DNA of 51,751 nucleotides. Source: Frankiales bacterium (GTDB taxonomy: Bacteria; Actinomycetota; Actinomycetes; Mycobacteriales; SCTD01). The position numbers and the translations under genes were made by a program. The notes under the pieces are model-generated. The model ran no database searches. It saw only the letters and a program-made list of their open reading frames with translations, and was not told where the DNA came from. Below are positions 12,948-42,603 of the stretch, piece by piece; position 1 is the stretch's first letter; every line of letters begins with the position of its first letter. The DNA lies in the NCBI GenBank assembly GCA_043732345.1, contig JAYTHS010000553.1:1-51751 (forward strand), given 5' to 3'.

Positions 12948-12990
12948 CGTCGGGTCATCCTCGGGTCATCCTCTGGTCATCCTCTGGTCA
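12944..12990. repeat. 11-bp tandem repeat (about 4 units) spanning the ABC-ATPase stop and nucleoside hydrolase start
   Basis: Plus strand: tcatcgtcggg tcatcctcggg tcatcctctgg tcatcctctgg tca. On the coding strand each unit reads (c)c(a/c)ga(g/c)gATGA, that is, SD-like GAGGA plus ATG/TGA. Confidence 0.85.
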
Positions 12991-15602: not shown

Positions 15603-15669
15603 CGTGATGACGAGCAGTGCCGGCGACAGCAGCAGGCCGATGCGCAGCCCGCGCGGGAGCCCTCGAGTG

Positions 15670-20704: not shown

Positions 20705-21412
20705 GTGGACCGCGACGGCTGGCTGAACCTGCTCGGGCTCACACCCGAGGAGGTCCCCCGGCTGCTCGTCCTGGAGGGGACATGGTGGCGGCAGCGGGCC
20801 CTGGACACGCGCTTGCCGAGCCTGACCGACGTCCGCGAGACCGGGATGCCGGACCTGTGGTGGGGGCGCCTCGGTGGGGTCCCCGTCGCCTACTGCCCGG
20901 CGTACGGTGCGGCGCGGGCCGTCGAACCGGTGCACGTGCTCGGGCTGTGCGGCACCCCGCGGGTGGTGCAGATCGGCTCGTGCGGCGGCTTCGGCATCCC
21001 CACCGGGACGGTCGTCGTGTCGACCAGGGCGACCATCGGCGAGGGGGCCTCGCGCTACTACGGCGCCGAGGGTGTCTCGCTGCCCACCCCGGCCCTCGTC
21101 GAACGGGCAGCGCAGGCCCTGGACGACGTGCCCGTCGTGACCGGGCCTACGGTCAGCACCGACGCCCTGCTCGCGCAACCTGTTGCCCTGCAGCAGGAGT
21201 GGTCCAGCGCCGGGCACGTCGGCGTCGACCTGGAGACCAGCGCGGTCTTCTCCGCAGCGGCTGCCCTGTCGATGGAGGCGGTCTCGCTGCTGTTCGTCTG
21301 GGACGAGCTGCCGGGCCGGGCCTGGACCGACTCCTTCAGCCCCGAGGAGTTGGCCGCCCAGGCACGGGCGAACGCCGCCACGTGGCGGGTCGCCCTCGGT
21401 CTGCTGCCGTGA
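20705..21412 (+). CDS. nucleoside phosphorylase-superfamily (PNP_UDP_1-like) protein
   Basis: 235 aa. ...QIGSCGGF...VVVSTRATIGEGASRYY...GVDLETSAVFSAA... resembles the phosphorylase family 1 core. Assignment is tentative. Confidence 0.5.
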   Translation: MDRDGWLNLLGLTPEEVPRLLVLEGTWWRQRALDTRLPSLTDVRETGMPDLWWGRLGGVPVAYCPAYGAARAVEPVHVLGLCGTPRVVQIGSCGGFGIPTGTVVVSTRATIGEGASRYYGAEGVSLPTPALVERAAQALDDVPVVTGPTVSTDALLAQPVALQQEWSSAGHVGVDLETSAVFSAAAALSMEAVSLLFVWDELPGRAWTDSFSPEELAAQARANAATWRVALGLLP

Positions 21413-22017
21413 GCGTGCTGCTGGTCCTGGACCTGCTCGGGGTCTTCGTGTTCGGCCTGTCCGGGGCATCGGTCGCCATGGAGGAGGGCCTGGACCTTTT
21501 CGGTGTCGTCGTGCTGTCCGTGGTCGCAGCCCTTGGCGGCGGCCTGCTGCGCGACGTCCTGCTGGGGGCCGCGCCACCGGCCGCGCTGCGGGACTCCCGC
21601 TACCTGCTGGTCGCCCTGGTGGCCGGCGCCGTGACCCTGGTCGCGGCCCGCTACGTGCGACGGCTGGCCCCTCTGGTGCGGCTGCTCGATGCGGCGGGGC
21701 TGGGGTTGTTCGTCGCGGCGGGGACGGCGAAGGCTCTGTCGGTCGGCCTCGGAGCGGCTCCGGCGATGGCGCTGGGCTGCCTCACCGGCGTCGGCGGGGG
21801 CATCCTGCGTGACGTGCTGGTCGGTCAGGTCCCGACGGTGCTGCGCCGGGAGCTGTACGCCATCCCGGCCCTGCTCGGCGCCGCCGTCGTCTGCCTCGGC
21901 GACGGTGTCGGCACCCGTCCTGGTCCAACGGCCGTCGTAGCCGCTGGGCTGGTCTTCGGCGTCCGGATGCTCGGCGTCTGGCGGGACTGGCACTTCCCGG
22001 TCGCGCGGGGCACCTAG
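21409..22017 (+). CDS. trimeric intracellular cation channel family protein (UPF0126/YadS-like)
   Basis: ORF 20782..22017, start re-set to GTG 21409, overlapping the previous stop as GTGA. Two glycine-rich repeats, GGGLLRDVL and GGGILRDVL. 7 TM-like helices. Confidence 0.8.
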   Translation: MSVLLVLDLLGVFVFGLSGASVAMEEGLDLFGVVVLSVVAALGGGLLRDVLLGAAPPAALRDSRYLLVALVAGAVTLVAARYVRRLAPLVRLLDAAGLGLFVAAGTAKALSVGLGAAPAMALGCLTGVGGGILRDVLVGQVPTVLRRELYAIPALLGAAVVCLGDGVGTRPGPTAVVAAGLVFGVRMLGVWRDWHFPVARGT

Positions 22018-22028
22018 GAGCGGACAGC

Positions 22029-22991
22029 TCAGGCCCGATGCCGCAGGGGTTCGCCCCGGTGCCAACGCTCCACGTCCCCGACGAGCATGGCGGTGTGGTG
22101 GCCGACGACGTCCTCGGCCGCCCCGGCGAGGTGGGGCGTCAGCAGCAGGCCACGGGTCCGCAGCAGCCGGCTGTCGCGGGCTAGCGGCTCAGTGGCGAAG
22201 ACGTCCAGGGCAGCTCCCGCGAGCCGGCCGGCGTCCAGCGCGTCGCAGAGCGCCTCCTCGTCCACGATCCCCCCGCCGGCGGTGTTCACGACGTAGGACG
22301 TCATGGGCATCCGGGCCAGCAGGGTGGCGTCGACGAGACCACGGGTCTCCGGGACGCGCGGGCAGTGCAGGGTGAGGACGGCGGACCGCTCGGCGAGCTC
22401 CCCGATCCCCAGGGAACCCTTGACGGTGGGGTCGCAGACGAGCACCTGCATGCCGAAGCCGTCGCGGGCCCGCTGCCCGACCCGGCTCCCGATGGCCCCC
22501 GCGCCCACGATGCCGAGGACGCGCCCGGCCAGCTCCGGGCCCCGGAAGTGCAGGTAGGGCAGGTCGTCCCCGACGTGCCAGCCCGTGTCGCGCAGGTGCC
22601 TCTCACTGGCGGCGATGCCCCTCACCAGCGAGAGGATCGCCCCGAGGACGAAGTCCGCCACGGAGTCGGCATTGCGGGCAGGTGTGAACAGGACCGGTAC
22701 GTCGCGGGCCGCGCACGCGGCGAGGTCGACGTTGACGGGGCCGCCGCGCGCCGTCCCGACGAGCCGCAGCTCGGGCAGTGCTGCCAGGACCTCGGCGTCG
22801 ACGACCTCGACCTCGGTGACCAGCAGCGCGGCGCCCCGGGCAACGTCGATGAGCTCCTGTCGGTCCAGCTGCCGGCGGGTCAGCCCCCAGCCGGCCCGCT
22901 CGACGATGTAGCCGAGCCGCTCGAGGCGGCGCACGCCGTCAGCTGTGATCTCCGCAGTCACCAGGGCCTTCACCCGGGCAGTCTCGCTCAC
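22029..22991 (-). CDS. D-isomer-specific 2-hydroxyacid dehydrogenase (NAD-binding)
   Basis: ORF 22029..23558, start re-set to GTG 22991 (GTGA overlap with the kinase stop). GxGxxG GIVGAGAIGSRVG. Catalytic region ...NTAGG...LDVF..EP...TPHLAG. Confidence 0.85.
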   Translation of the reverse strand: MSETARVKALVTAEITADGVRRLERLGYIVERAGWGLTRRQLDRQELIDVARGAALLVTEVEVVDAEVLAALPELRLVGTARGGPVNVDLAACAARDVPVLFTPARNADSVADFVLGAILSLVRGIAASERHLRDTGWHVGDDLPYLHFRGPELAGRVLGIVGAGAIGSRVGQRARDGFGMQVLVCDPTVKGSLGIGELAERSAVLTLHCPRVPETRGLVDATLLARMPMTSYVVNTAGGGIVDEEALCDALDAGRLAGAALDVFATEPLARDSRLLRTRGLLLTPHLAGAAEDVVGHHTAMLVGDVERWHRGEPLRHRA

Positions 22992-24364
22992 CCGGGCAGG
23001 GCCGCTCGCAGCGCCTCGGTGACCTGCAGCCACCGCTCGCGACGGGGCGCCAGGACAGCCGGGTCCCCGGCGGGGACGACCGTCTCGGGCAGGCTGGGCC
23101 GGTGCGCGTGGGCACCGACCGCTCGGGCGACCAGGGCCGCCCCCGCCGCGGCCGGGCCACCGGTCGCCACGCGCAGGTCGCGGCCGAGCACCTGCGCGAG
23201 CACCGGGGCGAGCGGGGCGGCCCCGCCGCCGGCCAGGACGAGGTGGTCGGCCCGACAGCCGAGGGCGCGCTCCAAGTCCAGCACTCCCCCGGCCACCGCG
23301 AAGGCGTGCGACTCCAGCAGCGCCCGGGCGACCTGGCCCGCTGTGGTCGCCGGGCCCACCCCGACCAGCGACCACGGTGGCTTGACCTGCCACGTCTGCT
23401 GCGACCACCAGGGCGCCGCCGTCACGGCGACCACTCCTGCCGGCTCGTCGGCGATCTCTTCCCCCGCTAGGCCGGACCACCAGCCGGAGAAGGCTCCGGG
23501 GTAGCCGGCGTTGCCCTCGACCGCCCACAGGTCCGGCGCCGCGTGGGTGGAGACCCACGGGCGCTCGAGCGGGTCGACGACCGGATGCGAGGTCGCGGCC
23601 TGCACGGGTGTGCTCGACCCGGCGACGACGGTGACGACCCCATCCGCCAGCCCACCGGCGGCCATCGCCGCGAGCTGGGTGTCGCCGCAGCCCGAGACGA
23701 CGGGCAGCCCGACCGGCAGTCCCCAGCCCACGAGCAGCTCACCGACGACCGTCCCCGCCTCGACGATCGGCGCGAGCAGCTCGGCTCGGATCCCGTTGTC
23801 CACCAGCAGCTCTGATGCCCACGACCGGGCGGCCACGTCCGCCATCGCCCCGGCACAGGCGTACGACACCTCAGTCACCTGCACCCCGCACAGCCGCCAC
23901 AGCAGCCAGTCGTGCAGGAAGAGCACCCGTCGCGTCGCGGCCCACCGGTCAGGCTCCTCGGCCTGCACGGCCAGCAGCTTGGGAAGCGTCAGCTCCGGGG
24001 CCGGCCAGTGGCCGGTCAGCGCGTGCCGGCCGGCCAGCACCCCGTCGTACGCCGCTCCTCGTCGGTCGCTGTTGAGCACGCCGTTGCCCAGCACCTCGCC
24101 GTCGACTCCGAGCAGCACGAACCCCTGCCGCAGGGTGCTCACGGTGATGCCAAGCCAGTCATCCTCGCCGGCGTCGGCCACCGCAGCGCAGAGCGCCTCG
24201 CGGCAGGCGGCCTCCCAGACGGCGGGGTCCAGCTCGGCCCGGTGCTCGGCGGGTCGCAGGGTGGGCAGGGCGACGCTCGACGAGGCCCGCAGCCCCCCGC
24301 CGACCTCGTGGACCCAGGCCTTCACGGACGAGCCACCGACGTCGAGCCCCGCCGTGAGCTGCAC
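22988..24364 (-). CDS. FGGY-family carbohydrate kinase
   Basis: N-terminal LDVGGSSVKAW phosphate-1 motif. 458 aa two-domain actin-fold kinase. ...GCGDTQLAAMAAG... Confidence 0.8.
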   Translation of the reverse strand: MQLTAGLDVGGSSVKAWVHEVGGGLRASSSVALPTLRPAEHRAELDPAVWEAACREALCAAVADAGEDDWLGITVSTLRQGFVLLGVDGEVLGNGVLNSDRRGAAYDGVLAGRHALTGHWPAPELTLPKLLAVQAEEPDRWAATRRVLFLHDWLLWRLCGVQVTEVSYACAGAMADVAARSWASELLVDNGIRAELLAPIVEAGTVVGELLVGWGLPVGLPVVSGCGDTQLAAMAAGGLADGVVTVVAGSSTPVQAATSHPVVDPLERPWVSTHAAPDLWAVEGNAGYPGAFSGWWSGLAGEEIADEPAGVVAVTAAPWWSQQTWQVKPPWSLVGVGPATTAGQVARALLESHAFAVAGGVLDLERALGCRADHLVLAGGGAAPLAPVLAQVLGRDLRVATGGPAAAGAALVARAVGAHAHRPSLPETVVPAGDPAVLAPRRERWLQVTEALRAALPG

Positions 24365-24999
24365 TAGACCGAGGCCTCCCCGGCCCGGACCGTCTCGAGG
24401 TACGACGGCGGGCAGGCCGTCGTGGTGTCACCCAGCTGCAGCATCACCAGCGTCGCGCGGGCGGCCTCCTCGAGGTTGGCCGCGCGCTTGTGGGCCAGCT
24501 CGACGGTCTCGCCGAGGATCGAGCAGCCGTGGTTGCCGAGGACGACGCAGTTGCAGCCGCCGGCCGCCGCCTGCGCACCGGCCTCGGCGAGCTCCGGGGT
24601 GCCGCTCTGGATGAACGGCGTCGTCACGACCTCGCGGACGTAGTAGGCGTGGTCGATCGTCAGGAGCCGGATGGGCAGGCCCATCGCCGTCAGCAGGACC
24701 GAGGTCTGCGGGTGCAGGTGGACGACGGCGTTGACATCCGGCCGCACCCGGTAGCTCGCGAGGTGGAGCTGGGCCTCGCTGCTGGGGCGGGGATGTCCGG
24801 ACAGCACGGTGCCGTCGGCGATCGAGACCGTGCTGAAGCTGTCCCTGCCCAGCTCGTCGAGCCAGGTGCCGCTGGCCGTCACGACGCACCGGTCCGAGCC
24901 CGGCTCACGGGCCGACAGGTTGCCGCCGGAGCCGATGACAAGCCCGGCGGCGACCGCCTTGCGGCCGACGGTGATCAGCTGGTCGACGAGGTCGGTCAC
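24364..24999 (-). CDS. class II aldolase/adducin-fold protein (aldolase, epimerase or decarboxylase type)
   Basis: GSGGNLSAR, metal ligands ...VVHLHP..., GNHGCS. 211 aa. Confidence 0.85.
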   Translation of the reverse strand: MTDLVDQLITVGRKAVAAGLVIGSGGNLSAREPGSDRCVVTASGTWLDELGRDSFSTVSIADGTVLSGHPRPSSEAQLHLASYRVRPDVNAVVHLHPQTSVLLTAMGLPIRLLTIDHAYYVREVVTTPFIQSGTPELAEAGAQAAAGGCNCVVLGNHGCSILGETVELAHKRAANLEEAARATLVMLQLGDTTTACPPSYLETVRAGEASV

Positions 25000-25898
25000 G
25001 GGACCACGATCTCCTTCAGTCGGGGGGTGGGCTTGGTGAGCGCCTCGCTGAGGCCCTCGAGCGGGTGCGTGCCGGTCACGACGAGCGCGCCGTCGAGCCG
25101 GTCGAGCAGCGCGATCGCGTCGGGGAAGCAGCCGGGGCCAAGGTGGCCGCCGGCGACCTGCCGCTCACCGTGCTCGGCGATCCGGTTGAGGTCCAGCGAC
25201 CACGGCCGGTCGTAAACGCCGTAGACCCCAAGCCTCCCACCGGCCCGCACCGCACCGAGCAGGACGTCGACGGCCGCGACGTCCCCGCTCACGTCGATCC
25301 CCACGTCGTACGCCGAGGCGACGGGATCCGTTGTCCAGTCGTCATAGCCCAGATCACCTGCCAGGCAGCCCTTCTCCAGCGACCGGACCAGGGCCGTGAC
25401 GTGCTCGGCACCCTCGGCGCGGGCCGCCGTCGCGGCGAGCGCACCCAGCCCCCCGAGCCCGGCCACGAGTACCCGGTCGCCGGGGCGCACCCCGGCCCGG
25501 CGGACCGCGTGCAGGACGCAGGCCATTGGCTCGGCGAGCACGGCCTGCTCCCGCGTCAGCGCGTCGGGGACCGGGTGGACGAGCGCGTCAGCCGGCAGGG
25601 CGAGCTGCTCGGCGAACCCGCCGGGGATCCCGCTGCCGAGGTGCCGGCCGTCGGGCAGCAGGACCTCGGTGGTGACCCGCGTCCCGGTCGGCAGGGGGCC
25701 GTGGACGACGCGGGCGAGGACCTCGTGCCCGGGCACGAAGGGCCACGGCAGCTCGCCCCAGGGGTGCCGACCCGTCCACAGCATCCGGTCCGCCGCGCAG
25801 ACGCCGGTCGCCTCGACGTCGAGCAGCCACGGCCCGTCCGGGGTGGGGAGCTCCGTGAGCCGGAAGTCGCCGGGACCGTGGGCGAGGACCGCCCTCAC
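24996..25898 (-). CDS. zinc-type medium-chain alcohol/polyol dehydrogenase
   Basis: GVCAADRMLWTG...PFVPGHE catalytic Zn ligands. GLGGLGALAA Rossmann motif. 300 aa. Confidence 0.8.
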   Translation of the reverse strand: MRAVLAHGPGDFRLTELPTPDGPWLLDVEATGVCAADRMLWTGRHPWGELPWPFVPGHEVLARVVHGPLPTGTRVTTEVLLPDGRHLGSGIPGGFAEQLALPADALVHPVPDALTREQAVLAEPMACVLHAVRRAGVRPGDRVLVAGLGGLGALAATAARAEGAEHVTALVRSLEKGCLAGDLGYDDWTTDPVASAYDVGIDVSGDVAAVDVLLGAVRAGGRLGVYGVYDRPWSLDLNRIAEHGERQVAGGHLGPGCFPDAIALLDRLDGALVVTGTHPLEGLSEALTKPTPRLKEIVVP

Positions 25899-26668
25899 CC
25901 GCGGCGGGACAGCACGTGGTCGCGGCTCTCCCGGACAGCCTGCTCGCCGGTCATGAGCCCGGTACTCACCGCGCCGTACAGGTCGAAGGAGGCCGTACCC
26001 GCATAACCGGTTGCGTCCAGCGCGGCCACGAACGTGCCGAGGTCGTGCAACCGGCCGCAGGGCAGGTCATCGTCGCCACCGCCGAGCTCCGCGTCCCCGA
26101 GGTGCACGTGCAGCAGCAGGTCCCCCAGCAGCTCGACGACCTGCGCGGGGTCCTCACCCAGGGCGTAGGCGTGACCGGTGTCGAGCAGGACGCCCAGCCC
26201 GGGGACATGCTTGCACAGTGCCAGCGCCTCGGCGGCCGTCGCGACCGCGGTGTCGGGCTTGTACTCGAGCGCGAGGCGCACGTCGCCGGCGGCCTGGACG
26301 ACGCGGCGCAGACCGGCGACGATCTCGGCCCCGACGGGGTCGGCGCCGGGCCACAGGCCGAGGACGGGCAGCCCCCGCTCGCGGCACACCTGCGCGCAGG
26401 CCCGGACCTGCTCGACCAGACGGTCGACCTCACCGGACAGCGCACCGGCTGGCCAGCGCTCGACGGGCAGCGACAGCAGGACGTCCGTGACGGGCACGTC
26501 AGCGGGCAGCGCCGCGAGCCGCTCGGGGGCCAGCTCCACCGCCGCGTCATAGACCCCGAGCTCGACGCCCTCGAGGCCGAGGGCAGCCGTCTGCCGGACG
26601 TGCTCGGGCCCCAGGGTGCCGTCAGGCCAGGAGTTCCAGTCGGCATCGGTGAGCCGCCAGGTGCTCAT
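25895..26668 (-). CDS. sugar-phosphate isomerase/epimerase (xylose-isomerase-like TIM barrel, AP_endonuc_2 fold)
   Basis: 257 aa. ...RLALEYKP...LLDTGHAY...HVHLGD... are conserved metal-binding E/D/H positions of this fold. Confidence 0.75.
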   Translation of the reverse strand: MSTWRLTDADWNSWPDGTLGPEHVRQTAALGLEGVELGVYDAAVELAPERLAALPADVPVTDVLLSLPVERWPAGALSGEVDRLVEQVRACAQVCRERGLPVLGLWPGADPVGAEIVAGLRRVVQAAGDVRLALEYKPDTAVATAAEALALCKHVPGLGVLLDTGHAYALGEDPAQVVELLGDLLLHVHLGDAELGGGDDDLPCGRLHDLGTFVAALDATGYAGTASFDLYGAVSTGLMTGEQAVRESRDHVLSRRG

Positions 26669-27738
26669 CCGGACTGCTCCCGCAGGCGCTGCAGGGTCGC
26701 CTCGCGCACCGGTCCGGTCTGCGCCTGCACGAGCAGGAACGCTGCTTCGCGCAGGTGCCGCTGGGGGGGCGCCGACAGCTCCATGGCGCTGCCTCCCGTC
26801 GCGACGACCAGCGCCGAGGCCGACCGGATGCCCAGCTCCAGGGCGTGGGCGCGGATGGCGAGCCGGTCCTCGACCTGCTCCAGCGGCGGGACGTGGTCGA
26901 TGAGGGCGTAGGCCTGGCTGCGCAGGGCCATGGCCTCATCGGCGAGCTCCTCCGCCAGCCGGGCCGCGGTGTCGTCACCGCGGCGCTCGGCGACCTGCGC
27001 CAGCCGGCGCACCACCTCGGCCTGCAGACCGAACAGCGAGGCACTGGTGTCGGCGGTCTTCGCCCGGTCGGCGGCCAGCCAGTCGTCGTACGGCCGGACG
27101 GCGGCGACATCGGCGTTGGCGACGAAGAACGCGTCCAGGTCGAAGGTCACGGTCGAGGTGGCCTGCATCGCCGCCAGCCGCATCGGCGCGCTCGAGGTGA
27201 GCCCTCCGCCGTCGCGAGCGGGCACGAGCGTCATCACGGCCTGCCCGTCGGCGGACAATCCGCAGAGCAGAACGACGTCGCACAGGCCCCAGGACGTCAT
27301 CCACCCGACGTGTCCGTCGAGCTGCCAGCCGCCCTCGACCCGGGTCGCGAGCACGGCGGGCGGACCGGGGCGACGCAGGTGGGCCACGGCGACGCCCGCG
27401 AGGACCTCGCCGGTGCACAGCGGCCCCAGCAGTCGCTCCCGGAGCGGTTCGTTGTCCGAGCTAGCGAGCACGGCGAGCGGCATCGCGTGCTGGGTCAGCA
27501 CGAACCACGTCGCGAGGTCGGCGCCGGCCAGGACCTCGACGACCTCGCGCACCACCCGCGGCGGCGCACCTCCACCGCCGTACGCCGGGGGGCCGGCCAG
27601 GCCGAGCAGCCCGGCCCGGGCCAGCGCATCGAGGTGGCTGCGCGGGACCCCCTCGACGTCCACCCGCTCGGCGGACGGGCGCAGCAGCTCGTCGGCCAGC
27701 CGCTCGGCCAGCAGGACCGGGGAGGTCGTCGTTGTCAC
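26665..27738 (-). CDS. acyl-CoA dehydrogenase-fold protein (357 aa; paralog of 10969..11967)
   Basis: GTG start at 27738. See the shared blocks listed for 10969..11967. 4-nt overlap with the downstream TIM-barrel gene. Confidence 0.7.
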   Translation of the reverse strand: MTTTTSPVLLAERLADELLRPSAERVDVEGVPRSHLDALARAGLLGLAGPPAYGGGGAPPRVVREVVEVLAGADLATWFVLTQHAMPLAVLASSDNEPLRERLLGPLCTGEVLAGVAVAHLRRPGPPAVLATRVEGGWQLDGHVGWMTSWGLCDVVLLCGLSADGQAVMTLVPARDGGGLTSSAPMRLAAMQATSTVTFDLDAFFVANADVAAVRPYDDWLAADRAKTADTSASLFGLQAEVVRRLAQVAERRGDDTAARLAEELADEAMALRSQAYALIDHVPPLEQVEDRLAIRAHALELGIRSASALVVATGGSAMELSAPPQRHLREAAFLLVQAQTGPVREATLQRLREQSG

Positions 27739-28033
27739 GCCCCAAGCCTAGGTGCGCGGGTCCCCACCCGCCGACGGCGCCGAAGCCACCGTCGACACAC
27801 ACGATCGCGCCGGTCGTCGCGGGTAACCACTCGGACAGCAGCATCACGCAGGCCTGCGCGACCGGCTCCGCGTCGCGGACGTCCCAGCCCAGCGGGGCCC
27901 GGCGACCCGACGGGTGAGCGACATCGGTCGGCCGAAGCTCGACCTCCGCGCCCTGCTCGTCGGCCAGGCGGGCGACGCTCGCCTCGATGAGGACCCCGGT
28001 GACGAGCAGCCGCTTGCCTGCCAGCAGGCTCAA
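27739..28033 (-). pseudogene. internally deleted enoyl-ACP reductase (FabI/InhA) remnant
   Basis: The first ~98 codons of ORF 27461..28033 (TTG start, TTGA overlap with the ACP stop) read [89 protein letters not shown]. They align to residues ~1-37 and ~205-255 of the intact FabI at 38166..38936 ([16 protein letters not shown]...[46 protein letters not shown]). The middle ~170 aa, including the Tyr/Lys catalytic region, is absent, and the stop is lost. Confidence 0.7.
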
Positions 28034-28272
28034 GCGACCTTCGTCATGATCAGGTCGAGGAAGGCGCCGATCGTCGTCAGGTCGGTGAGCTCGTCCTCGG
28101 GCAGCTCGATCCCGAGCGCATCCTCGAGGTCCATCGTGTACTCCACGAGCGACAGGGAGTCGACGTCGAGGTCCTCGACAAAGGACTTGTCCTCCTGGAC
28201 GGCGTCGGGCTCGACCTCGAGCAGCTCGACGGCCTTGTCCCTCATGACCTGCAACACCTCGGCGCGCTCCAT
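28030..28272 (-). CDS. acyl carrier protein (extra copy 1)
   Basis: 80 aa. Phosphopantetheine site FVEDLDVDSLSLVEYTMDLEDALGIELPEDE. Confidence 0.85.
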   Translation of the reverse strand: MERAEVLQVMRDKAVELLEVEPDAVQEDKSFVEDLDVDSLSLVEYTMDLEDALGIELPEDELTDLTTIGAFLDLIMTKVA

Positions 28273-28281
28273 GGGGGAAGG

Positions 28282-28992
28282 CTAGTGGCCCATCCCGAGC
28301 CCACCGTCCACGGGCAGGACCGCACCGGTGACGTAGGCGGAGGCGTCGGAGGCGAGGAAGCCGATGACGGCGGCGATCTCCTCCGGCGCCGCGGTCCGGC
28401 CCAGCGGGATGGTGCCGAGCAGCTCGGCCCGCCGGGCCTCGGTGAGCTCGGCGGTCATGTCGGTGTCGACGAAGCCGGGTGCGACCACGTTGGCGGTGAT
28501 GGACCGCGACCCCAGCTCACGGGCCAACGACCGGGACAGCCCCACCAGCCCCGCCTTCGACGCGGCGTAGTTGGCCTGGCCGGCTCCGCCCGACAGGCCA
28601 ACGACGCTGCTGACGAAGACCAGCCTGCCCCAGCGGGCCTTGAGCATCCCCCGGGACGCGCGCTTGGCAACCCGGAAGGCGGCGGTGAGGTTGGCGTCGA
28701 GAACCGAGGTGAACGAGGCCTCGCTCATCCGCAGCAGCAGCTGGTCATCGGTGATGCCGGCGTTGCTCACGACCACCTCGACCGGCCCCTGCGCGGCCTC
28801 GACCTCGGTGAACGCCGCATCCACCTCCGCGCTCGAGGTCACATCGCACCGGACGGCGAGCAGCCCCTCGGGCGGGGCTGACCGGTAGGTCACGGCAACC
28901 CGGTGGCCCTGCTCGGCAAGCAGCCGGGCCGTCGCGAGGCCGATGCCCCGGCTGCCTCCGGTCACCAGGACCGAGCGTCCAGTGGTGCTCAC
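28282..28992 (-). CDS. fabG: 3-oxoacyl-ACP reductase (FabG/MabA-like SDR)
   Basis: TGGSRGIG cofactor motif, NAG, catalytic S...YAASKAG. Shares the VTYRS...CDVTS pattern of MabA-type FabG. Confidence 0.88.
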   Translation of the reverse strand: MSTTGRSVLVTGGSRGIGLATARLLAEQGHRVAVTYRSAPPEGLLAVRCDVTSSAEVDAAFTEVEAAQGPVEVVVSNAGITDDQLLLRMSEASFTSVLDANLTAAFRVAKRASRGMLKARWGRLVFVSSVVGLSGGAGQANYAASKAGLVGLSRSLARELGSRSITANVVAPGFVDTDMTAELTEARRAELLGTIPLGRTAAPEEIAAVIGFLASDASAYVTGAVLPVDGGLGMGH

Positions 28993-29085
28993 AGCTACTC
29001 CAGGTCGTCAGGGCCGGCCACGGACAGGGACGGCAGGTCGGCGTGCACGCAGGGCATGGTGCCGCACCCCTCGTAGGCTCAGGAC

Positions 29086-29337
29086 GTGGCTGCCCCGGAC
29101 GACCTGCACGAACGCCTGCTGGAACTAAGCGCCCAGACCCTGGAGGTCGGGCCCGACCAGCTCACCGCCGAGGCGCTGCTCAACGACGACCTGGGGATCG
29201 ACAGCCTGGCGGCGATCGAGTGGGGCATGACCATCGAGGACGCCTTCGGGGTGGTCATCCCCGAGCAGGCATGGGTCGACGTCACGACGTACGGCGCGGT
29301 CGAGGACCTGGTCCGTCGTCAGCTGGCCAGCGCATGA
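29086..29337 (+). CDS. acyl carrier protein (extra copy 2)
   Basis: 83 aa. GTG start preceded by tcAGGAc. Site LNDDLGIDSLAAIEWGMTIEDAFG. The stop overlaps the KS start as ATGA. Confidence 0.8.
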   Translation: MAAPDDLHERLLELSAQTLEVGPDQLTAEALLNDDLGIDSLAAIEWGMTIEDAFGVVIPEQAWVDVTTYGAVEDLVRRQLASA

Positions 29338-30512
29338 GGGCCCGGCCGGCTCCGCGCCGGGTCGTCGTCACCGGCATCGGGGTGGTCTCCCCGGCAGGCA
29401 CCGGGCTGAAGGCCTTCTGGACGGGTCTGCGGACGCAGCCCCCGCTGCGCCGTCAGCGCGAGGTCATCGACTTCGATGCCGGCAGCTGGCTGACAGGCAA
29501 GGAGCAGCGGCACCACGACCGCTTCACGCACTTCGCGATCGCCGCGGCGCAGATGGCGGTCGAGCACGCAGGCGGGCTGCCGGCGGTCGAGCCCACCCGG
29601 GCCGGGGTGAGCCTGGGCACCGGCATCGGAGGGGTCGGGACCCTCGAGACCCAGGTCGCGGTGCTGGCCGAGCGCGGCCCGGGTCGCGTCTCCCCCTTCA
29701 CGATCCCGATGGTCATGCCCAACGCGGGCGCAGCCGCAGTCGCCCTGCGGCTGGGCTGGCAGGGGCCATGCGAGACGCTCACGACTGCCTGTGCCGCAGG
29801 CACTCACAGCATCGGCGCGGGTGCTCGCCTGATCGCGGACGGACGCTGCGACCTGGTCCTGGCCGGCGGAGCCGAGAGCTCGATGACCCCCACCACGGTC
29901 GCGGCGTTCACCAAGATGACCGCCCTGTCCGAGACCGGGCTGTCGCGGCCCTTCGACATCGACCGGGACGGTTTCTGCATCGCCGAAGGAGCCGCCGTAC
30001 TGCTGCTGGAGGACCGTGACAGCGCCCTGGCGCGCGGTGCCCACGTCTACGGCGAGGTCGCGGGGGCGGCGTCGACCTGCGACGCCCACCACATCACCGC
30101 TCCCAGCCCGGGCGGGGTCGGCGCGGCAGCCTGCATGCGGATGGCGATCGACGACGCCGGGCTCGTCCCGGCCGACGTCCGGCACGTCAACGCGCACGGC
30201 ACCTCGACCCCGCTGAACGACCAGGCCGAGGCGCAGGCCGTCGCGACGGTCTTCGGACCCGGCGCCGTGCCCGTGACCAGCATCAAGGGCGTGACCGGTC
30301 ACGGGCTCGGGGCGGCCGGGGCGCTGGAGGCCGCTGCCGTCCTGCTGTCCTTCGCGCACCGGGAGCTTCCGCCCACGATGGGCACCAGCGTCGTCGACCC
30401 GTCCCTCGAGATCGACGTCGTGCTCGAGCCCCGGGCGTGGGAGCCCGGCCCGACGGTGAGCAACAGCTTCGGCTTCGGCGGTCACAACGGCTCGCTGGTG
30501 CTGGTCCCGTGA
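29334..30512 (+). CDS. beta-ketoacyl-ACP synthase I/II type (extra KS with Cys-His-His triad)
   Basis: ORF 29043..30512, start re-set to ATG 29334 (MRARPAPRRVVVTGIGVVSP). Active-site TTACAAGTHSIG, DAHHITAP, VNAHGTSTPLND, SFGFGGHN. Confidence 0.9.
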   Translation: MRARPAPRRVVVTGIGVVSPAGTGLKAFWTGLRTQPPLRRQREVIDFDAGSWLTGKEQRHHDRFTHFAIAAAQMAVEHAGGLPAVEPTRAGVSLGTGIGGVGTLETQVAVLAERGPGRVSPFTIPMVMPNAGAAAVALRLGWQGPCETLTTACAAGTHSIGAGARLIADGRCDLVLAGGAESSMTPTTVAAFTKMTALSETGLSRPFDIDRDGFCIAEGAAVLLLEDRDSALARGAHVYGEVAGAASTCDAHHITAPSPGGVGAAACMRMAIDDAGLVPADVRHVNAHGTSTPLNDQAEAQAVATVFGPGAVPVTSIKGVTGHGLGAAGALEAAAVLLSFAHRELPPTMGTSVVDPSLEIDVVLEPRAWEPGPTVSNSFGFGGHNGSLVLVP

Positions 30513-31285
30513 CCGCTGACCTCGCCCTCGCGCACCAGCTCGCCGACGTTGCCGACGCGATCACGCTGGACCGCTTCCGGGCCCTGGACCTCGACGTGAC
30601 CGCCAAGCCCGACCTGACCCCGGTCAGCGACGCCGACCTGGCCGTCGAGGCGGCGCTGCGGGCCCTGCTGGCCACCGAGCGCCCCGGCGACGCCGTTCTG
30701 GGCGAGGAGCACGGGGTGACCGGTGACGGCCCGCGCCGGTGGGTCGTCGACCCCGTCGACGGGACGAAGAACTTCGTCCGCGGCGTACCGGTGTGGGCCA
30801 CGCTGATCGCGCTGCAGATCGACGGTGTCGTCGAGATCGGGGTCGTCAGCGCCCCCGCCCTCGGACGCCGCTGGTGGGCCGCCCGCGGCCAGGGCGCCTT
30901 TGCCGGACCGTCGTACGACGCGGGGACGCGGCTCACGGTCAGCGGGGTCGCAGACCTCGGCGACGCGCACCTGAGCTACAGCTCGCTGAGCGGCTGGGAG
31001 GAGCAGGGTCGGCTGTCCGGGCTGCTCTCGCTGTCACGGGACTGCTGGCGCACCAGGGCTTTCGGTGACTTCTGGTCGCACGTGCTCGTGGCCGAGGGGG
31101 CCGTCGACGCCTCGTTCGAGCCGGAGGTGTCGCTGTGGGACCTGGCCGCCCTGCAGGTCGTCGTCGAGGAGGCCGGCGGGACCTTCACCGATCTTTCTGG
31201 TCGCCCCACCCCCGACGGTGGGAGCGTGGTCTGCAGCAATGGCCTGCTGCACCAGACCGTCCTGTCACGCCTGGAGGCGAGATGA
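30509..31285 (+). CDS. hisN: histidinol-phosphatase, inositol monophosphatase family (HisN)
   Basis: Start GTG 30509 (GTGA overlap with the KS stop). Near-colinear with the actinobacterial HisN pattern: ITLDRF...KPDLTPVSDADLAVE...GEE...WVVDPVDGTKNFVRGVPVWATLIAL...SAPALGRRWWA...GDFWSHVLVAEGAVD...EPEVSLWDLAAL. Confidence 0.85.
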   Translation: MTADLALAHQLADVADAITLDRFRALDLDVTAKPDLTPVSDADLAVEAALRALLATERPGDAVLGEEHGVTGDGPRRWVVDPVDGTKNFVRGVPVWATLIALQIDGVVEIGVVSAPALGRRWWAARGQGAFAGPSYDAGTRLTVSGVADLGDAHLSYSSLSGWEEQGRLSGLLSLSRDCWRTRAFGDFWSHVLVAEGAVDASFEPEVSLWDLAALQVVVEEAGGTFTDLSGRPTPDGGSVVCSNGLLHQTVLSRLEAR

Positions 31286-31851
31286 CCACCCTGACCGACC
31301 GCCCGCGCGCCGCCCTGCTTGTCGTCGACGTCCAGAACGACGTCGTCGCGCAGGCCCACGACCGGGACGGAGTCGTCGGACGCATCGCCGACCTCGTCGA
31401 CCGGGCCAGGGCCGCGCACGTCCCCGTCGTGTGGGTCCAGCACGCCGACGGTGGCCTGCCCACCGGGACGGCCGGGTGGGAGCTCGTCCCCGAGCTGGTG
31501 CCGGCGGACGGCGAGCCCGTCGTGCACAAGGGGTACGGCGACTCCTTCGAGGACACCGACCTCGAGAGCGTCCTCGCGCAGCGGGGCGTGGGGCACCTGG
31601 TGGTGACGGGCGCGCAGACCGACATGTGCATCCGGTCGACCCTGCACGGGGCGATCACGCGCGGCTACGACGCGACGCTGGTGGCTGATGCGCACACCAC
31701 CGAGGACCTCAGCTCCGAGGGTGCCCCAACGCCGGACCTCGTCATCGCCCACACCAACCTGTACTGGGAGCACCACCGGGCCCCTGGCCGCACCGGCGGG
31801 ACGGTGCAGTCAGCCGACGTCGCCTTCGACACAAACAGTCCGCAGCAGTGA
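31282..31851 (+). CDS. isochorismatase-family cysteine hydrolase
   Basis: Start ATG 31282 (ATGA overlap). ALLVVDVQND, ...K...SFEDTDL, VVTGAQTDMCIRST catalytic Cys. Confidence 0.85.
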   Translation: MTTLTDRPRAALLVVDVQNDVVAQAHDRDGVVGRIADLVDRARAAHVPVVWVQHADGGLPTGTAGWELVPELVPADGEPVVHKGYGDSFEDTDLESVLAQRGVGHLVVTGAQTDMCIRSTLHGAITRGYDATLVADAHTTEDLSSEGAPTPDLVIAHTNLYWEHHRAPGRTGGTVQSADVAFDTNSPQQ

Positions 31852-32648
31852 CGACCGGGGCGCCGCGTCGTACGGTCCTGGGCACCGCACTCCGAGGAGC
31901 CCTCGTGCGCCGTTGCCTGTTGGTTTGGCCCTTTCTGTCGCTGCTGTGGGCCTCACCGGCCCTGGCCATCACCAACGGCGCCCCCGACGGCGCGGCGCAC
32001 CCGCAGGTCGGGGGCCTGGTCGCCGACCACGCCTACTCCGACGGCACCTGGCTCTACTGCTCCGGCACCTTGATCAGCCCGACCGTCTTCCTGACGGCGG
32101 CGCACTGCGCCGAGACGACGCGCGTGCGGGTGTCGTTCTCCTCGGCCTACCAAGACGGGGACACGACGTACAGCGGCACGTTCCACGGCGACCCGGCGTA
32201 CAACCAGACGCAGAGCGACCCGCACGACATCGCCGTCGTCGAGCTCGACAAGGCTGTCAAGGGCATCATCCCGGCCTTGCTGCCCAAGGCCGGATCCTTG
32301 GGCGCTCTGCCTGCCACGCAGCAGTTCACGAGCGTGGGGTACGGCGCCTACCAGGTCAGCCAGGGCCCGGGAGGCCACGGCTTCCTCTACAACGACGTCC
32401 GCGGGGTCGCGACCGGGACGCTCAACGCCACCAACTCGGCGTGGCTGCGGGTCTCGATGAACCCCTCCACCGACAACGGCGGCACCTGCTACGGCGACTC
32501 CGGCGGTCCGAACTTCCTCGGCACCTCCACCGTCATCGCCGCGACCACGATCACCGGCGACGCGATCTGCCGCAGCACCAACGTCGACTACCGCCTGGAC
32601 ACCCCGTCCGCCCGGACGTTCCTGGCCCCGTACGTCGCCCTGCCCTGA
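31848..32648 (+). CDS. secreted trypsin-like serine protease (S1 family)
   Basis: GTG start overlapping the previous stop as GTGA. Signal peptide ...LSLLWASPALA. Triad LTAAHC / DIAVVEL / CYGDSGGP. Confidence 0.85.
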   Translation: MTTGAPRRTVLGTALRGALVRRCLLVWPFLSLLWASPALAITNGAPDGAAHPQVGGLVADHAYSDGTWLYCSGTLISPTVFLTAAHCAETTRVRVSFSSAYQDGDTTYSGTFHGDPAYNQTQSDPHDIAVVELDKAVKGIIPALLPKAGSLGALPATQQFTSVGYGAYQVSQGPGGHGFLYNDVRGVATGTLNATNSAWLRVSMNPSTDNGGTCYGDSGGPNFLGTSTVIAATTITGDAICRSTNVDYRLDTPSARTFLAPYVALP

Positions 32649-32666
32649 CCTGGTCGAGGCCCACTG

Positions 32667-33353
32667 TCAGGCGTCGACGCGGGCCCGCCGGGCGTCGTAC
32701 CACCGCAGCAGGACGGGCGTGAGGGCCAGCGCTGCGGCGTCGAACCACGCGTAACCGCCGGCGATCCCGCTCGGCGGGTTGCCGATCGCGATCAGGCCGG
32801 TCGGGTCGTGCGTGGACCAGCGCCAGGTCCCGAGCGTCGTCCCGACGACCTCGAGGTAGGACACCACCAGGAACGCGCCCGCGTAGACGAGCCGGCTGCG
32901 ACCCCACCGGCTGAAGACCAGCAGGCACCCGAACCAGAACGCCCCCAGGACGTCGAGCTGCGGCGAGAACGCCAGTCCCCAGACCGCCCAAGCCCCGCAG
33001 GTGACCAGCGTGGCCGCGGTCAAGACAGGAGCGTGCTCCCTCGCCCACGCCGAACGACCGATGCCCAAGGCCGCGAGGTAGACCAGGCCGTGCCCCGGCG
33101 GGACGAACGCCGGGATGTTGTGCAGGCGGTAGACGTAGACGTCAAGGCCCCCCGAGAAGACGTACTCGACCAGGGTCGCGAAGGCCACAACGACGGCGAC
33201 CTGCACCCGTGTCGCCCGGTTCTCCCTGCGCAGCAGGGTGAGCAGCAGCAGCCAGGTTCCCAGACCGATAAGCCGCTGCTGGCCCAGCGTCGCACCGGTG
33301 TCCAGGCCGAGGGCGACCGCGACCCACGCGACGACGGTGAGCGGCAGGAGCAC
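32667..33353 (-). CDS. integral membrane protein of unknown function
   Basis: 228 aa, about 7 hydrophobic helices, high GC3. GTG start 15 nt after the msrA stop. Confidence 0.6.
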
Positions 33354-33368
33354 GGGAGCAACGATGCC

Positions 33369-34046
33369 CTAGCTGCGGGGCGGGGCCACGTCGATCTGCG
33401 CCGGGACGGCGAGCCCGACGGGGCAGGAGACGCCGTTGAAGCCGTGGTTGCAGTAACCACCGGGGTTCTTGAACAGGTACTGCTGGTGGTAGGCCTCGGC
33501 GTAGAAGAAGGGCCCGGCCGGCAGCACCTCGGTGGTGATGCTGCCCTTGCCCGCAGCGGTCAGCGCCGCCTGGTAGGCCTCGCGGGACGCCTTCGCCGTC
33601 ACGAGCTGCGCATCACTGGTCGTGTAGACCGCCGAGCGGTACTGCGTGCCCTGGTCGTTGCCCTGCCGCATCCCCTGCGTCGGGTCGTGGTTCTCCCAGA
33701 ACAGGACAAGCAGCGCCTCTAGGGAGGTGACGCGGGGGTCGTAGACGACCTGGACCGCCTCGGTGTGGCCGGTCCGCCCAGTGCAGGCCTCCTCGTACGT
33801 CGGGTTCGGGGTGTGCCCCCCTGCGTAGCCGGCCGCCGTGCTGATGACCCCGGGGGCATGCCAGAAGATCCGCTCGGCGCCCCAGAAGCAGCCCATCCCG
33901 ACGTACACCGTCTCAAGGGGCGGCGCGAAGGGACCGGTGAGGCCCGCGTCGAGCACCTCGTGGTGGGCCGGGACCGCCATCGGGGTGGGCCGGCCCGGCA
34001 GCGCCTCGTCCGCGGTCGGGAGGTCGGTCTTGCGCAGGAAGGAGAA
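33369..34046 (-). CDS. msrA: peptide-methionine (S)-S-oxide reductase MsrA
   Basis: ORF 33369..34622, start re-set to ATG 34046 ([10 protein letters not shown]). Active site GMGCFWGAE. ...GYAGG.T.NPTYEE...[12 protein letters not shown]... Confidence 0.92.
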
Positions 34047-34099: not shown

Positions 34100-35461
34100 T
34101 CACGAGGCGGGGAACAGCACCCCGGGGTTGAGCAGACCTGTCGGGTCCAGCGCCGCCTTGACGGCCCGCATCGCGGCGATCTCGACGGGTGAGCGCGACA
34201 GCTGCAGCCAGGCGGCCTTGGCCCGCCCGACCCCGTGCTCGCTGCTGATCGAGCCCTCCAGCGACGCCACCAGCCGCAGGACCGCCTCGGTGACCTGCTC
34301 GTGCAGCTCGCCGGTGTCCAGGACGTTGACGTGCAGGTTTCCCTCGTTGACGTGGCCGAAGACGATCGGCCGGGCTCCCGGGCAGACGCCGAGGATGGCG
34401 GGCTCCAGGCCGGCGACTAGGGCGGGCAGGGAGGCGGTGGGCACCGAGACGTCGAGCTTGACCGGGACGCCCTGCGCGCTGATCGCCTCGGTGTGCATCT
34501 CGCGGTAGGCCCACAGCGCCCGCTGGCCCGCGGCGTCGTCGGCGACCCGGGCGTCGACCAGGCCCGGCGCCTCCCCGACGGCTTCGACGAGCTGGGCCGT
34601 CGGGTCGTGGCGGTCCGAGCACTCCAGCAGCAGGTAGGCGGGGTGGTCCTCCGGGAACGGCGCCGGCAGCCCGCCGTGGGCGCGGACCAGGGCGAGGCCG
34701 GGCGCGTAGAACAGCTCTGCCGCCGACAGCGAGGGCAGCGCCTCGCGCAGCCCTGGCAGCAGGGCCACGGCCGCCTCGGTCGAGTCCATCGCGAGCAGCG
34801 CGACGGCCCGTGACCGCATTCGCGGCACCAGGCGCAGGCGTACGGCGGTGACGACCGCCAGCGTGCCCTCCGACCCGGCGAGCAGGCCGACCAGGTCGTA
34901 GCCCGTGCCGTCCTTGGCCAGGCCCGCCATCCGGGACAGCACAGAGCCGTCGGCCAGCACGGCCTCCAGACCGACGATCTGGGCCCGCATCGAGCCGTAG
35001 CGCAGCACCCGGATACCGCCGGCGTTGGTGGCGACGAGCCCCCCGACCGTCGCGGAGTCACGAGCTGCGAGGTCCACCCCGACGTCGAGGTCCACGGCGC
35101 GGGCATGTGCCTGCAGCGCAGCAAGAGTCACGCCAGCCCCGGCGGTGACCTGGCCGGCGGCCCGGTCGACCTCACCCAGGTCGGTCAGCCGGGTCAGCGA
35201 TAGCACGACCTCTCCCCCGGCGGGCACGGCGCCACCGACCAGCGAGGTGTTACCGCCCTGCACGACGACCCCGACGCCGGCGGCGCCGCAGGCGCGCAGG
35301 ACACCCGCGACCTGCTCCGTCGCACGGGGGCGGACGACGGCGATCGCGCGACCGGTGAACCGCCCCGTCCAGTCGGTCTCGTAGGACGACTTGAGGTCGT
35401 CCTCGACCAGCACGTGCTCGGCCCCGGCGACGGCCCGCAGCGCCTCGAGCAGGCCCGTCAC
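34100..35461 (-). CDS. FAD-linked oxidase (GlcD / D-lactate dehydrogenase-like)
   Basis: ORF 34100..36400, start re-set to GTG 35461 (GTGA overlap with the serA stop). FAD_binding_4 motifs [13 protein letters not shown], ...ATNAGG.R..RYG..R. C-terminal ...[10 protein letters not shown]... Confidence 0.85.
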
Positions 35462-39712: not shown

Positions 39713-39755
39713 GTGGCGACCATCGTCACGCAGCGACCCTGGCCGTGCGGTCCGC

Positions 39756-42352: not shown

Positions 42353-42603
42353 GCAGGCACCGAGGCGGTGATCAGCGCCACGGCGTCTCCGACGGTGCGC
42401 AGGGCCTCGAGCGCCTCGTCCGGGATGCGGACGTTGAAGCGCTCCTCGCAGGCGACCACGACCTCGACCATGGTGAGGCTGTCGATCTCGAGGTCGTCGC
42501 CGAAGGCGGCGCTGGGCACGACCTTGTCGACGGGGGTGCCGGCAACCTCGTCGAGGATCTCGGCGAGCCCGGCGAGGACGTCCTGGGAGGTGGCGGTGGT
42601 CAT
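42349..42603 (-). CDS. acpP: acyl carrier protein (housekeeping AcpP/AcpM)
   Basis: 84 aa. FGDDLEIDSLTMVEVVVACEERF. Confidence 0.9.
   Translation of the reverse strand: MTTATSQDVLAGLAEILDEVAGTPVDKVVPSAAFGDDLEIDSLTMVEVVVACEERFNVRIPDEALEALRTVGDAVALITASVPA

Follow-up and report, generated by a model that had tools for sequence, protein, structure and literature searches.

The gene cluster at positions 22029-32648 of a 51,751-nt stretch of DNA from a Frankiales bacterium (GCA_043732345.1, contig JAYTHS010000553.1; hereafter the window) joins genes resembling those of fatty acid synthesis, including one for an acyl-CoA dehydrogenase (ACAD)-fold protein, to genes for sugar-phosphate processing. 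The cluster probably consists of three separable units that stand side by side in a vertically inherited syntenic block, with the sugar-phosphate cassette read through from the lipid operon in front of it. We favor adjacency with read-through over one pathway because each unit persists without the others. An initial annotation of the window had instead proposed a single hard-wired pathway, which the relatives do not support, as some of them have one unit without the others.

Unit 1 would be an actinobacterial reductase operon of the mabA-inhA type, in which fabG, the gene of an extra acyl carrier protein (ACP) and fabI are followed by an ACAD-fold gene as the last member. The window lineage has lost an upstream acyltransferase gene of this operon, and its fabI has decayed. 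Unit 2 would be a divergent operon of a second ACP, a FabF-like ketosynthase (KS) and hisN, and may supply a spare elongation pair like that of type II fatty acid synthesis (FAS-II). Unit 3 would be an autonomous cassette of five genes, which follows unit 1 at its 3' end and is coupled to it in translation. In this cassette, a dehydrogenase and/or a TIM-barrel isomerase/3-epimerase would produce a ketose, an FGGY kinase would phosphorylate it, a FucA-type aldolase would split the ketose phosphate into dihydroxyacetone phosphate (DHAP) and a short aldehyde, and a 2-hydroxyacid dehydrogenase may handle the C2/C3 product. A functional link between the lipid and sugar parts is possible but unproven.

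The features of the cluster and two reference genes are as follows.

22029-22991, minus strand: D-2-hydroxyacid dehydrogenase, a paralog resembling phosphoglycerate dehydrogenase (2-Hacid_dh_C, 4.8e-47)
22988-24364, minus strand: FGGY sugar kinase, xylulokinase-like (FGGY_N/C)
24364-24999, minus strand: FucA-type class II aldolase (Aldolase_II, 1.1e-38)
24996-25898, minus strand: medium-chain zinc alcohol dehydrogenase (Zn-ADH)-like dehydrogenase, short form (ADH_N and ADH_zinc_N)
25895-26668, minus strand: xylose-isomerase-like TIM barrel, predicted metal-dependent sugar(-phosphate) isomerase/3-epimerase (AP_endonuc_2, 3e-22)
26665-27738, minus strand: ACAD-fold protein (only Acyl-CoA_dh_N significant in Pfam)
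27739-28033, minus strand: fabI pseudogene remnant (adh_short_C2 matches over its last 44 residues only)
28030-28272, minus strand: ACP1, divergent acyl carrier protein with DSL site (PP-binding, 2.5e-12)
28282-28992, minus strand: FabG, 3-oxoacyl-ACP reductase of MabA/SCO1815 type (Pfam adh_short_C2 1.7e-57, KR)
28993-29085, no strand: divergent intergenic spacer of 93 bp (from the sequence; no consensus promoter or terminator found)
29086-29337, plus strand: ACP2, second divergent acyl carrier protein with DSL site (PP-binding, 1.2e-9)
29334-30512, plus strand: FabF-like elongating KS with Cys-His-His (ketoacyl-synt N and C)
30509-31285, plus strand: HisN-type histidinol-phosphatase of the inositol monophosphatase family (TIGR02067, a narrow pass with 280.5 bits versus cut-off 275.15)
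31282-31851, plus strand: isochorismatase-fold hydrolase (Pfam)
31848-32648, plus strand: trypsin-like protease (Pfam)
20705-21412, plus strand: conserved gene of the PNP_UDP_1 nucleosidase/phosphorylase family that bounds the block on its far side
38166-38936, minus strand: intact FabI/InhA, last gene of the main fab operon (NCBIfam PRK07889, 421.5 bits versus cut-off 299)

Gene layout and selection

All nine minus-strand open reading frames (ORFs; 28992 down to 22029) and five plus-strand ORFs (29086-32648) are present. The ORF list, domain calls, short overlaps and 93-bp spacer of the initial annotation were all reproduced by Pfam and by direct reading of the junctions. The 4-nt overlaps read TTGA at 28030-33, ATGA at 26665-68, and GTGA at 25895-98, 24996-99 and 22988-91, the 1-nt overlap at 24364 reads TAGTG, and the plus-strand junctions are, in order, ATGA, GTGA, ATGA and GTGA. 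The cassette is probably co-transcribed with unit 1. The G+C content of the window is 65-76% (2-kb steps). Scans of positions 21000-33500 found no consensus promoter and one terminator-like site, which lies outside the operon and within shuffle expectation; both scans are uninformative for an actinobacterium with 73% GC.

An identical ACAD protein with the same neighbors and the same FabI remnant was found on three independent metagenome contigs from different samples (L081-L083), and a fourth contig (L115) is 98-100% identical. The arrangement is therefore not an assembly artifact. All intact cluster genes are under purifying selection, with ratios of nonsynonymous to synonymous substitution rates (dN/dS) of 0.07-0.21. 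This includes FabG, ACP1, ACAD, ACP2 and KS, unlike fabI.

Assortment of the units among relatives

Relatives were surveyed in 20-kb stretches around an anchor gene, which was the ACAD gene in one survey (80 loci, one genome per species) and the aldolase gene in a second one. The loci carry L numbers (L171 and L015 are on the same contig). The closest genome representatives are Frankiales/Mycobacteriales metagenome-assembled genomes, with ACAD identities of at most 73%. Neighbors of the ACAD gene were counted in the 54 species whose loci extend at least 3 kb to both sides of it.

Neither FAS-like genes nor the cassette accompanied ACAD in 39 of the 54 species. FAS-like genes only were found in 6, both FAS-like genes and cassette in 8, and the cassette only in 1, and ACAD thus lacked the cassette in 45 species. 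Within the clade of the window, the core consists of hisN-KS-ACP2, diverging from acyltransferase and/or FabG, then ACP1, in some cases FabI, and ACAD, followed by the convergent PNP_UDP_1 gene. The cassette lies between ACAD and PNP_UDP_1 in about half of the clade. Whether ACP, ketoreductase and ACAD genes adjoin the kinase, aldolase and TIM-barrel genes elsewhere had been suggested as a check of the single pathway; they do so in 8 of 15 clade species, but the units also occur apart.

Several loci document this separation. The cassette is found alone in L114, behind a divergent GAF-histidine kinase/LuxR pair and with internal 4-nt overlaps, directly after FabI and without ACAD in L088, and directly opposite ACP2-KS with no FabG, ACP1 or ACAD in between in L128, L132 and L148. 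In L090 it comes after a set of fatty acyl-CoA reductase (FAR-SDR), FadD and VapBC genes, again without ACAD. The order acyltransferase-ACAD-cassette is kept in L007, L009, L124 and L136, from which KS and both ACPs are missing. Conversely, the cassette is missing next to ACAD and FAS-like genes, such as those of ACP and KS, in L012, L013, L024, L025, L026, L029 and L085. FGGY kinase remnants in L019 and L029 indicate that the cassette was lost there, and a short cassette without TIM barrel and Zn-ADH is present in L008, L014 and L021. Many aldolase homologs (55-70%) are found in unrelated contexts, and in other genomes close homologs stand alone or after glycolate-oxidase subunits.

The conserved block extends from PMSR and hisN through ACAD to PNP_UDP_1, DUF998 and FadD. 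PNP_UDP_1 is convergent with ACAD or the cassette in most relatives. One old juxtaposition of ACAD and cassette in this block, followed by lineage-specific deletions, accounts for every arrangement. The initial annotation had kept, as a fallback, the chance fusion of a catabolic sugar operon with a fabG-acp-fabI unit in decay. This comes nearer to the evidence, but only fabI and the upstream acyltransferase gene have decayed.

In one subclade, wax-ester synthase/DGAT and glyoxalase/VOC genes lie between ACP1 and ACAD (L002 8115-9984, L089 5343-7218, also L001, L003 and L004), and there is no FabI at that place. The isochorismatase-fold hydrolase and the trypsin-like protease of the window are lineage-specific passengers outside the conserved unit; the two genes are missing after hisN in L085, L089 and L171, and other genes take the protease position in L170.

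FabG, the fabI remnant and the main fab operon

The best PDB matches of the cluster FabG were 2NM0 (334.9 bits), which we take to be FabG SCO1815 of S. coelicolor, and then MabA 1UZL (278.7 bits). The Streptomyces fabG-fabI pair is presumably SCO1815-SCO1814; the literature on these two genes yielded annotation-level mentions only. The top NCBIfam model, mycolic_FabG1, scored 372.6 bits, under its exception cut-off of 420. Similarity to MabA and SCO1815, together with the adjoining InhA-type enoyl reductase gene (intact in L084), places the protein in the MabA/FabG1 subfamily. It is 79-88% conserved across relatives, has a dN/dS of 0.10-0.16, and is the only MabA-type ketoreductase in the window.

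The main fab operon at 38166-45703 encodes a FabD-like protein, FabH, AcpP, FabF, an AccD6-like carboxyltransferase, a hydrolase and FabI; neither a FabG nor a dehydratase gene is among its members. It had been described as a complete housekeeping FAS-II operon, which is correct as to the operon but overstated as to its completeness. As this operon has no fabG, the cluster FabG is probably not surplus, although it had been counted in a surplus set, and is probably the housekeeping ketoreductase that serves bulk fatty acid synthesis. Genes for an alpha/beta hydrolase and the AccD6-like carboxyltransferase (38933-41153, minus strand) precede the intact FabI.

The cluster FabI had been read as internally deleted. 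The deletion is real, but the ORF does not end before the ACAD gene; its stop codon is lost and it runs on to 27461 inside that gene. Compared with the intact 252-residue FabI of L084, whose ACAD is 85% identical to the window copy, the remnant shows a 12-nt deletion, a frameshifting 8-nt deletion, an internal deletion of about 480 nt and the loss of the stop codon. A closer relative, L170, has a fabI with a single frameshift, an earlier stage of decay, so that the three loci form a stepwise series from the intact gene of L084 through that of L170 to the mostly deleted copy of the window. A FabD-like acyltransferase gene upstream of FabG in L084 and L170 is gone from the window. The intact FabI that closes the main fab operon also reaches 346.9 bits with the NCBIfam InhA model and shares 75% identity with the intact cluster FabI of L084. 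Its presence would have allowed the cluster fabI to decay, which suggests that a relocated or duplicated FabI made the cluster copy dispensable.

The spare ACPs, the ketosynthase and hisN

ACP1 and ACP2 score under every NCBIfam ACP cut-off, whereas AcpP of the main operon (42349-42603) passes. The KS scores 407 bits with NCBIfam PRK07314 (cut-off 387) and is a paralog of the FabF of the window, with 45% identity. Of the two ACPs, the KS and the ACAD, all held to be surplus beside the fab operon, the ACPs and the KS bear this out. The dN/dS values are 0.11 for ACP1, 0.18 for ACP2 and 0.067 for the KS; with this range of 0.067-0.18, the spare ACPs and KS are in use, and they are real extras.

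HisN is kept in L007 and L009, which have neither KS nor ACPs, and serves as a synteny anchor. In L171, the spare KS and hisN are separated by an inserted canonical three-domain ACAD gene (4998-6215, minus strand).

The ACAD-fold protein

The AlphaFold2 model of the ACAD-fold protein has a pLDDT of 92.3, and Foldseek gives TM-scores of 0.79-0.83 to many true ACADs with just 16-21% identity, which establishes the fold. Both canonical catalytic glutamates are missing. The glutamate of the YEG motif (MCAD type) is replaced by Ala339 in the alignment with 3PFD, a residue that is nearly invariant in the family, and the helix-G position used in IVD/LCAD-type enzymes is A226/K227 in the alignment with 2DVL. 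The TEPxxGSD segment is swapped for AHLRRPG, and WxTxWG is retained. Across 88 orthologs and 7 paralogs, from Streptomyces to the window clade, E68, Q83, H84, R122, D224, R273, R292, R296, R327, R330 and R345 are invariant, and they are the same with or without a cassette alongside. The dN/dS is 0.10-0.16.

The family also occurs in Streptomyces, Actinomycetospora and Actinopolymorpha, with unrelated neighbors. Outside the clade these are mixed (an aldo-keto reductase, a GH31 glycosidase, or FAR-SDR and FadD). The protein is a member of a widespread actinobacterial family and not a demonstrable acyl-ACP dehydrogenase of the FkbI/MbtN type. The comparison drawn in the initial annotation with FkbI/ZmaE/MbtN-type acyl-ACP enzymes fails on the missing catalytic base, and partners of the FkbH and FkbK kind were not found. 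The phosphate-eliminating ACADs ACAD10, ACAD11 and LvaC are characterized by a catalytic Asp at the base position, by the HCMR motif and by partnership with an APH-type kinase (PMC12440821). A likeness to these was rejected, as the cluster protein has Ala at the base position and no HCMR motif, and the neighboring kinase is FGGY, not APH.

The window encodes a second ACAD-fold paralog (10969-11967, minus strand), which shares 40% identity with the cluster copy and has no Pfam hit. There is a 4-nt overlap between its gene and the stop of a gene for an inosine-uridine nucleoside hydrolase, and the hydrolase gene lies behind those of an ABC ATPase, two permeases and a solute-binding protein (operon within 10969-16860, minus strand). 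In L088, the orthologous transporter/hydrolase set directly follows a short aldolase-kinase-dehydrogenase cassette. Genes for an AurF-like di-iron protein and a TetR regulator are found just downstream of the window paralog (9256-10937, minus strand). Paralogous pairs of a FabI-like short-chain dehydrogenase/reductase (SDR) and an ACAD-fold protein recur in L085 (17586-19451) and L088 (2557-6123), and also in L006, L013 and L029. They adjoin acyl-AMP ligase genes in L085 and L088, with an ACP gene as well in L088, and may represent a second family of small lipid-tailoring modules.

The sugar-phosphate cassette

Judging from sequence, the cassette most likely serves the catabolism of a ketose or polyol phosphate, a substrate class suggested by its enzyme families. 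None of its enzymes reaches any NCBIfam equivalog cut-off. The TIM barrel (AlphaFold2 pLDDT 90.6) matches 3KTC and UlaE (TM 0.79) in Foldseek, with TM-scores of 0.7-0.8 to D-tagatose/D-allulose 3-epimerases and UlaE. Its invariant residues are E135, D163, H189 and D229, whose placement at the metal site was judged from their order in the sequence only. No NCBIfam model exceeded the 1e-5 threshold, save IolE weakly. In the Zn-ADH-like enzyme, C34 and a GHE motif are present and the structural-zinc lobe is missing from the sequence.

In the aldolase, E79 (in PSSE), H98, H100 and H161 (alignment numbering) are invariant and correspond to the glutamate and three histidines of the FucA-type site. 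The best PDB matches are FucA 2OPI and 6BTD, which was deposited as fuculose phosphate aldolase and which we take to be DrdA, the aldolase of 5-deoxyribose disposal. Equivalog-level scores were not reached (PRK08333, 103 bits versus 267; FucA_Meth, 93 bits versus 250). Class II aldolase-fold 4-epimerases carry an acid/base Asp, aldolases a Glu. An AraD/UlaF/SgbE 4-epimerase identity was rejected because the motif is PSSE, not PSSD, and AraD models score 46-87 bits versus cut-offs of 251-389. The kinase scores 148 bits with the XylB model (cut-off 380) and matches the xylulokinases 5VM1 and 2ITM. The 2-hydroxyacid dehydrogenase matches 5TX7 and phosphoglycerate dehydrogenases, and the SerA equivalog lies elsewhere in the window (35458-36672).

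A role in methionine salvage or the 5'-deoxyadenosine DHAP shunt, prompted by nearby PNP_UDP_1 and radical-SAM genes, is only a lead and was not adopted. PNP_UDP_1 is convergent, stays when the cassette is missing and matches no NCBIfam model, all of which count against such a role. A fused metallophosphoesterase-radical SAM gene is present near ACAD or the cassette in distant lineages (L070 5998-7725, L089 17015-18709 and L156 8017-9705, all on the minus strand). It adjoins PNP_UDP_1 in L089 and L156 and lies about 1.4 kb off in L070.

Arguments for a possible functional link

Several observations weigh against mere adjacency. Where ACAD and cassette occur together, they are always co-directional and nearly touching, with a 4-nt overlap in the window, a gap of about 30 nt or less elsewhere, and about 100 nt in L031. 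The two adjoin each other in three separate parts of the ACAD tree (the window clade, L031 and L070), with ACAD identities as low as 43%, and ACAD-aldolase pairs without the rest of the cassette are found in L099, L106, L108 and L109. Among the surveyed loci, the cassette was never seen away from the lipid locus within the clade. In a second lineage the context is again one of lipid genes (FAR-SDR and FadD in L090; FAR-SDR, FadD and ACAD in Actinomycetospora). The window ACAD paralog at 10969-11967 is coupled to the nucleoside hydrolase/ABC sugar-transporter operon. Because of the apposition at 43% identity, the ACAD-aldolase pairs, the two lipid contexts and the coupling of the paralog to a transporter operon, explanations based on linked function were retained. 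A class II fructose-bisphosphate aldolase (FBA) gene upstream of ACAD in L031 was considered as a sign of embedding among sugar genes and rejected, being taken as the ordinary FBA of the organism. It shares 76-80% identity with FBA genes found some 6 kb away from stand-alone aldolase homologs in unrelated loci (L119, L133, L140 and L145), and the neighbors in L119 are unrelated genes.

The ACAD could be a sixth cassette member, a flavoprotein without acyl-thioester dehydrogenase chemistry that acts on the cassette substrate or product, with the FAS genes as mere neighbors. We regard this as unlikely, even if it is the strongest of the linked explanations. ACAD-cassette units without any ACP or KS in L070 and L031, the ACAD-aldolase pairs (L099, L106-L109), the tight spacing in every case and the coupling of the window paralog to a nucleoside hydrolase/ABC transporter operon all fit it, as does an active site with Ala339 for Glu, no IVD-type Glu and many invariant arginines. 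The same invariant residues are, however, found in the 45 species that have ACAD without the cassette, and the cassette occurs without ACAD in L088, L090, L114 and the loci of the L128 type. Moreover, the Actinomycetospora ACAD comes after fatty acyl-CoA reductase and FadD, ACAD paralogs pair with FabI-like, FadD and ACP genes, and the FBA of L031 is a housekeeping aldolase, not a pathway gene. The cassette might instead serve lipid synthesis indirectly, as a source of DHAP/glycerol phosphate or of the polyol head group of a lipid that the spare KS and ACPs would help to make for storage or the envelope. Co-expression with fatty acid genes would then be explained. This appears somewhat less likely still. 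The aldolase is predicted to yield DHAP, the cassette has a lipid context in two lineages (FAS-II-like genes; FAR-SDR and FadD), and wax-ester synthase/DGAT genes lie between ACP1 and ACAD in L002-L004 and L089. Against this, the window cluster encodes no acyltransferase for DHAP or glycerol phosphate, L114 has an autonomous cassette, and a single ancestral juxtaposition with deletions explains all arrangements.

We consider it improbable that the ACAD acts as a bridge, working together with the FGGY kinase on a phosphorylated, carrier- or CoA-bound hydroxyacyl or polyol-acyl intermediate, so that cassette, ACPs and KS would build or recycle an undescribed polyol- or DHAP-linked lipid. The lost glutamates, the kept flavin-type WxTxWG and the ring of invariant arginines are the basis of this idea. 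Least probable is the model of the initial annotation, in which a phosphorylated C4-C5 polyol or acid sugar becomes an ACP-bound unit that the KS condenses to a polyol-lipid or a small polyketide-like product. The cassette does adjoin two spare ACPs and a KS under strong constraint (dN/dS 0.067), the gene sets co-occur in 8 of 15 clade species, and hisN, of a phosphatase family, is coupled to the KS. Yet no loading enzyme was seen, as Pfam found neither an FkbH-like HAD transferase nor an adenylating enzyme in any ORF. In addition, the ACAD lacks a catalytic base, FabG is of the housekeeping type, hisN passes the HisN equivalog cut-off and remains when the KS is lost, and the KS/ACPs and the cassette assort independently. 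An ACP-tethered sugar intermediate is probably absent.

Comparison with known systems

The locus is a variant on familiar kinds of systems and not a novel category. Unit 1 shares with mabA(fabG1)-inhA and the Streptomyces fabG-fabI pair a ketoreductase of the same subfamily (2NM0, MabA) followed by an InhA-type enoyl reductase, intact in L084. It differs by an ACP gene between the reductases, an ACAD-fold gene after them and the pseudogene state of fabI in the window, and in many relatives a FabD-like acyltransferase precedes or replaces FabG. The operon at 38166-45703 has the layout of fabD-acpM-kasA-kasB-accD6 (FabD-like, FabH, AcpP, FabF/KasA-like, AccD6-like), and spare ACP2-KS is a paralogous copy of its ACP-KS core. 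The spare pair differs in being divergent and coupled to hisN, with an ACP below cut-offs and a KS with 45% identity to FabF.

As in FucK-FucA, DrdA and the Ald2 of the DHAP shunt, an FGGY kinase adjoins a class II aldolase with the FucA Glu and three His. In place of a FucI-, MtnA- or MtnK-type partner, which it lacks, the cassette encodes a TIM barrel of the AP_endonuc_2 family, a Zn-ADH-like enzyme and a 2-hydroxyacid dehydrogenase. With the L-xylulose branch of L-ascorbate/L-lyxose use (LyxK, UlaE/SgbU, UlaF/SgbE) it shares three folds, namely an FGGY kinase, a UlaE-like TIM barrel and a class II aldolase. The differences are the PSSE Glu of the cassette aldolase in place of the 4-epimerase Asp, and short cassette variants without the TIM barrel. 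The logic of OtnI/OtnK/OtnC is similar, with 2-hydroxy oxidation, TIM-barrel isomerization, phosphorylation and release of DHAP by a class II aldolase-fold enzyme. However, the cassette kinase is FGGY, not DUF1537, and the OtnC (OxoTetrPhDc) model gave 87.7 bits versus a cut-off of 250. Membership was rejected for lack of a DUF1537 kinase and of an OtnC-equivalog score.

In EryABCHI and the M. smegmatis LerK/LerI/DerI systems, EryB or RpiB-like isomerases stand beside an FGGY kinase and a TIM barrel. Erythritol/threitol catabolism was rejected, as Pfam found neither a GlpD-like EryB nor RpiB-like tetrulose-phosphate isomerases among the cluster ORFs. FkbGHIJK and ZmaDEGN likewise have a dedicated ACP adjoining an ACAD-fold protein and a dehydrogenase, but the cluster has no FkbH-like loader and no 3-hydroxyacyl-CoA dehydrogenase, and its ACAD lacks the catalytic Glu. 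A hydroxymalonyl- or methoxymalonyl-ACP cassette was rejected, because an FkbH-like HAD loader and an FkbK-type dehydrogenase were not found by Pfam among the 14 ORFs.

We take M. tuberculosis Rv0727c (fucA)-Rv0728c (serA2)-Rv0729 (xylB) to comprise the same three families as the short cassette, and to our knowledge this trio is uncharacterized. The literature on Rv0727c-Rv0729 yielded annotation-level mentions only, and one mention of Rv0729c was discounted as a typographical error for Rv0792c. Rv0727c is annotated as possible FucA (PMC12101465).

If the units are independent, as favored by the comparative data, the locus is mainly a caution for the reading of gene clusters. A housekeeping lipid operon and an unrelated sugar cassette can share one orientation and be joined by tight overlaps, and assortment among relatives should be checked before hybrid pathways are proposed. 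Three of its elements are uncharacterized: the spare ACP/KS set (with acyltransferase and enoyl reductase) conserved in an uncultured Frankiales-like clade, the widespread actinobacterial ACAD-fold family without canonical catalytic base, and the five-gene aldolase/kinase cassette, whose three-gene core presumably resembles M. tuberculosis fucA-serA2-xylB.

RNA elements in the window

A tRNA search found none, and an Rfam scan found no RNA element within the cluster. A match to the c-di-GMP-II-GAG riboswitch (RF03169, 47.5 bits versus gathering score 40) lies at 7949-8066 on the minus strand, in the lower-GC left part of the window, which holds few ORFs with strong coding signal. A c-di-AMP riboswitch (Rfam RF00379, 58.7 bits versus gathering score 38) is located at 50298-50449 on the plus strand, immediately upstream of the ORF at 50455-50904.

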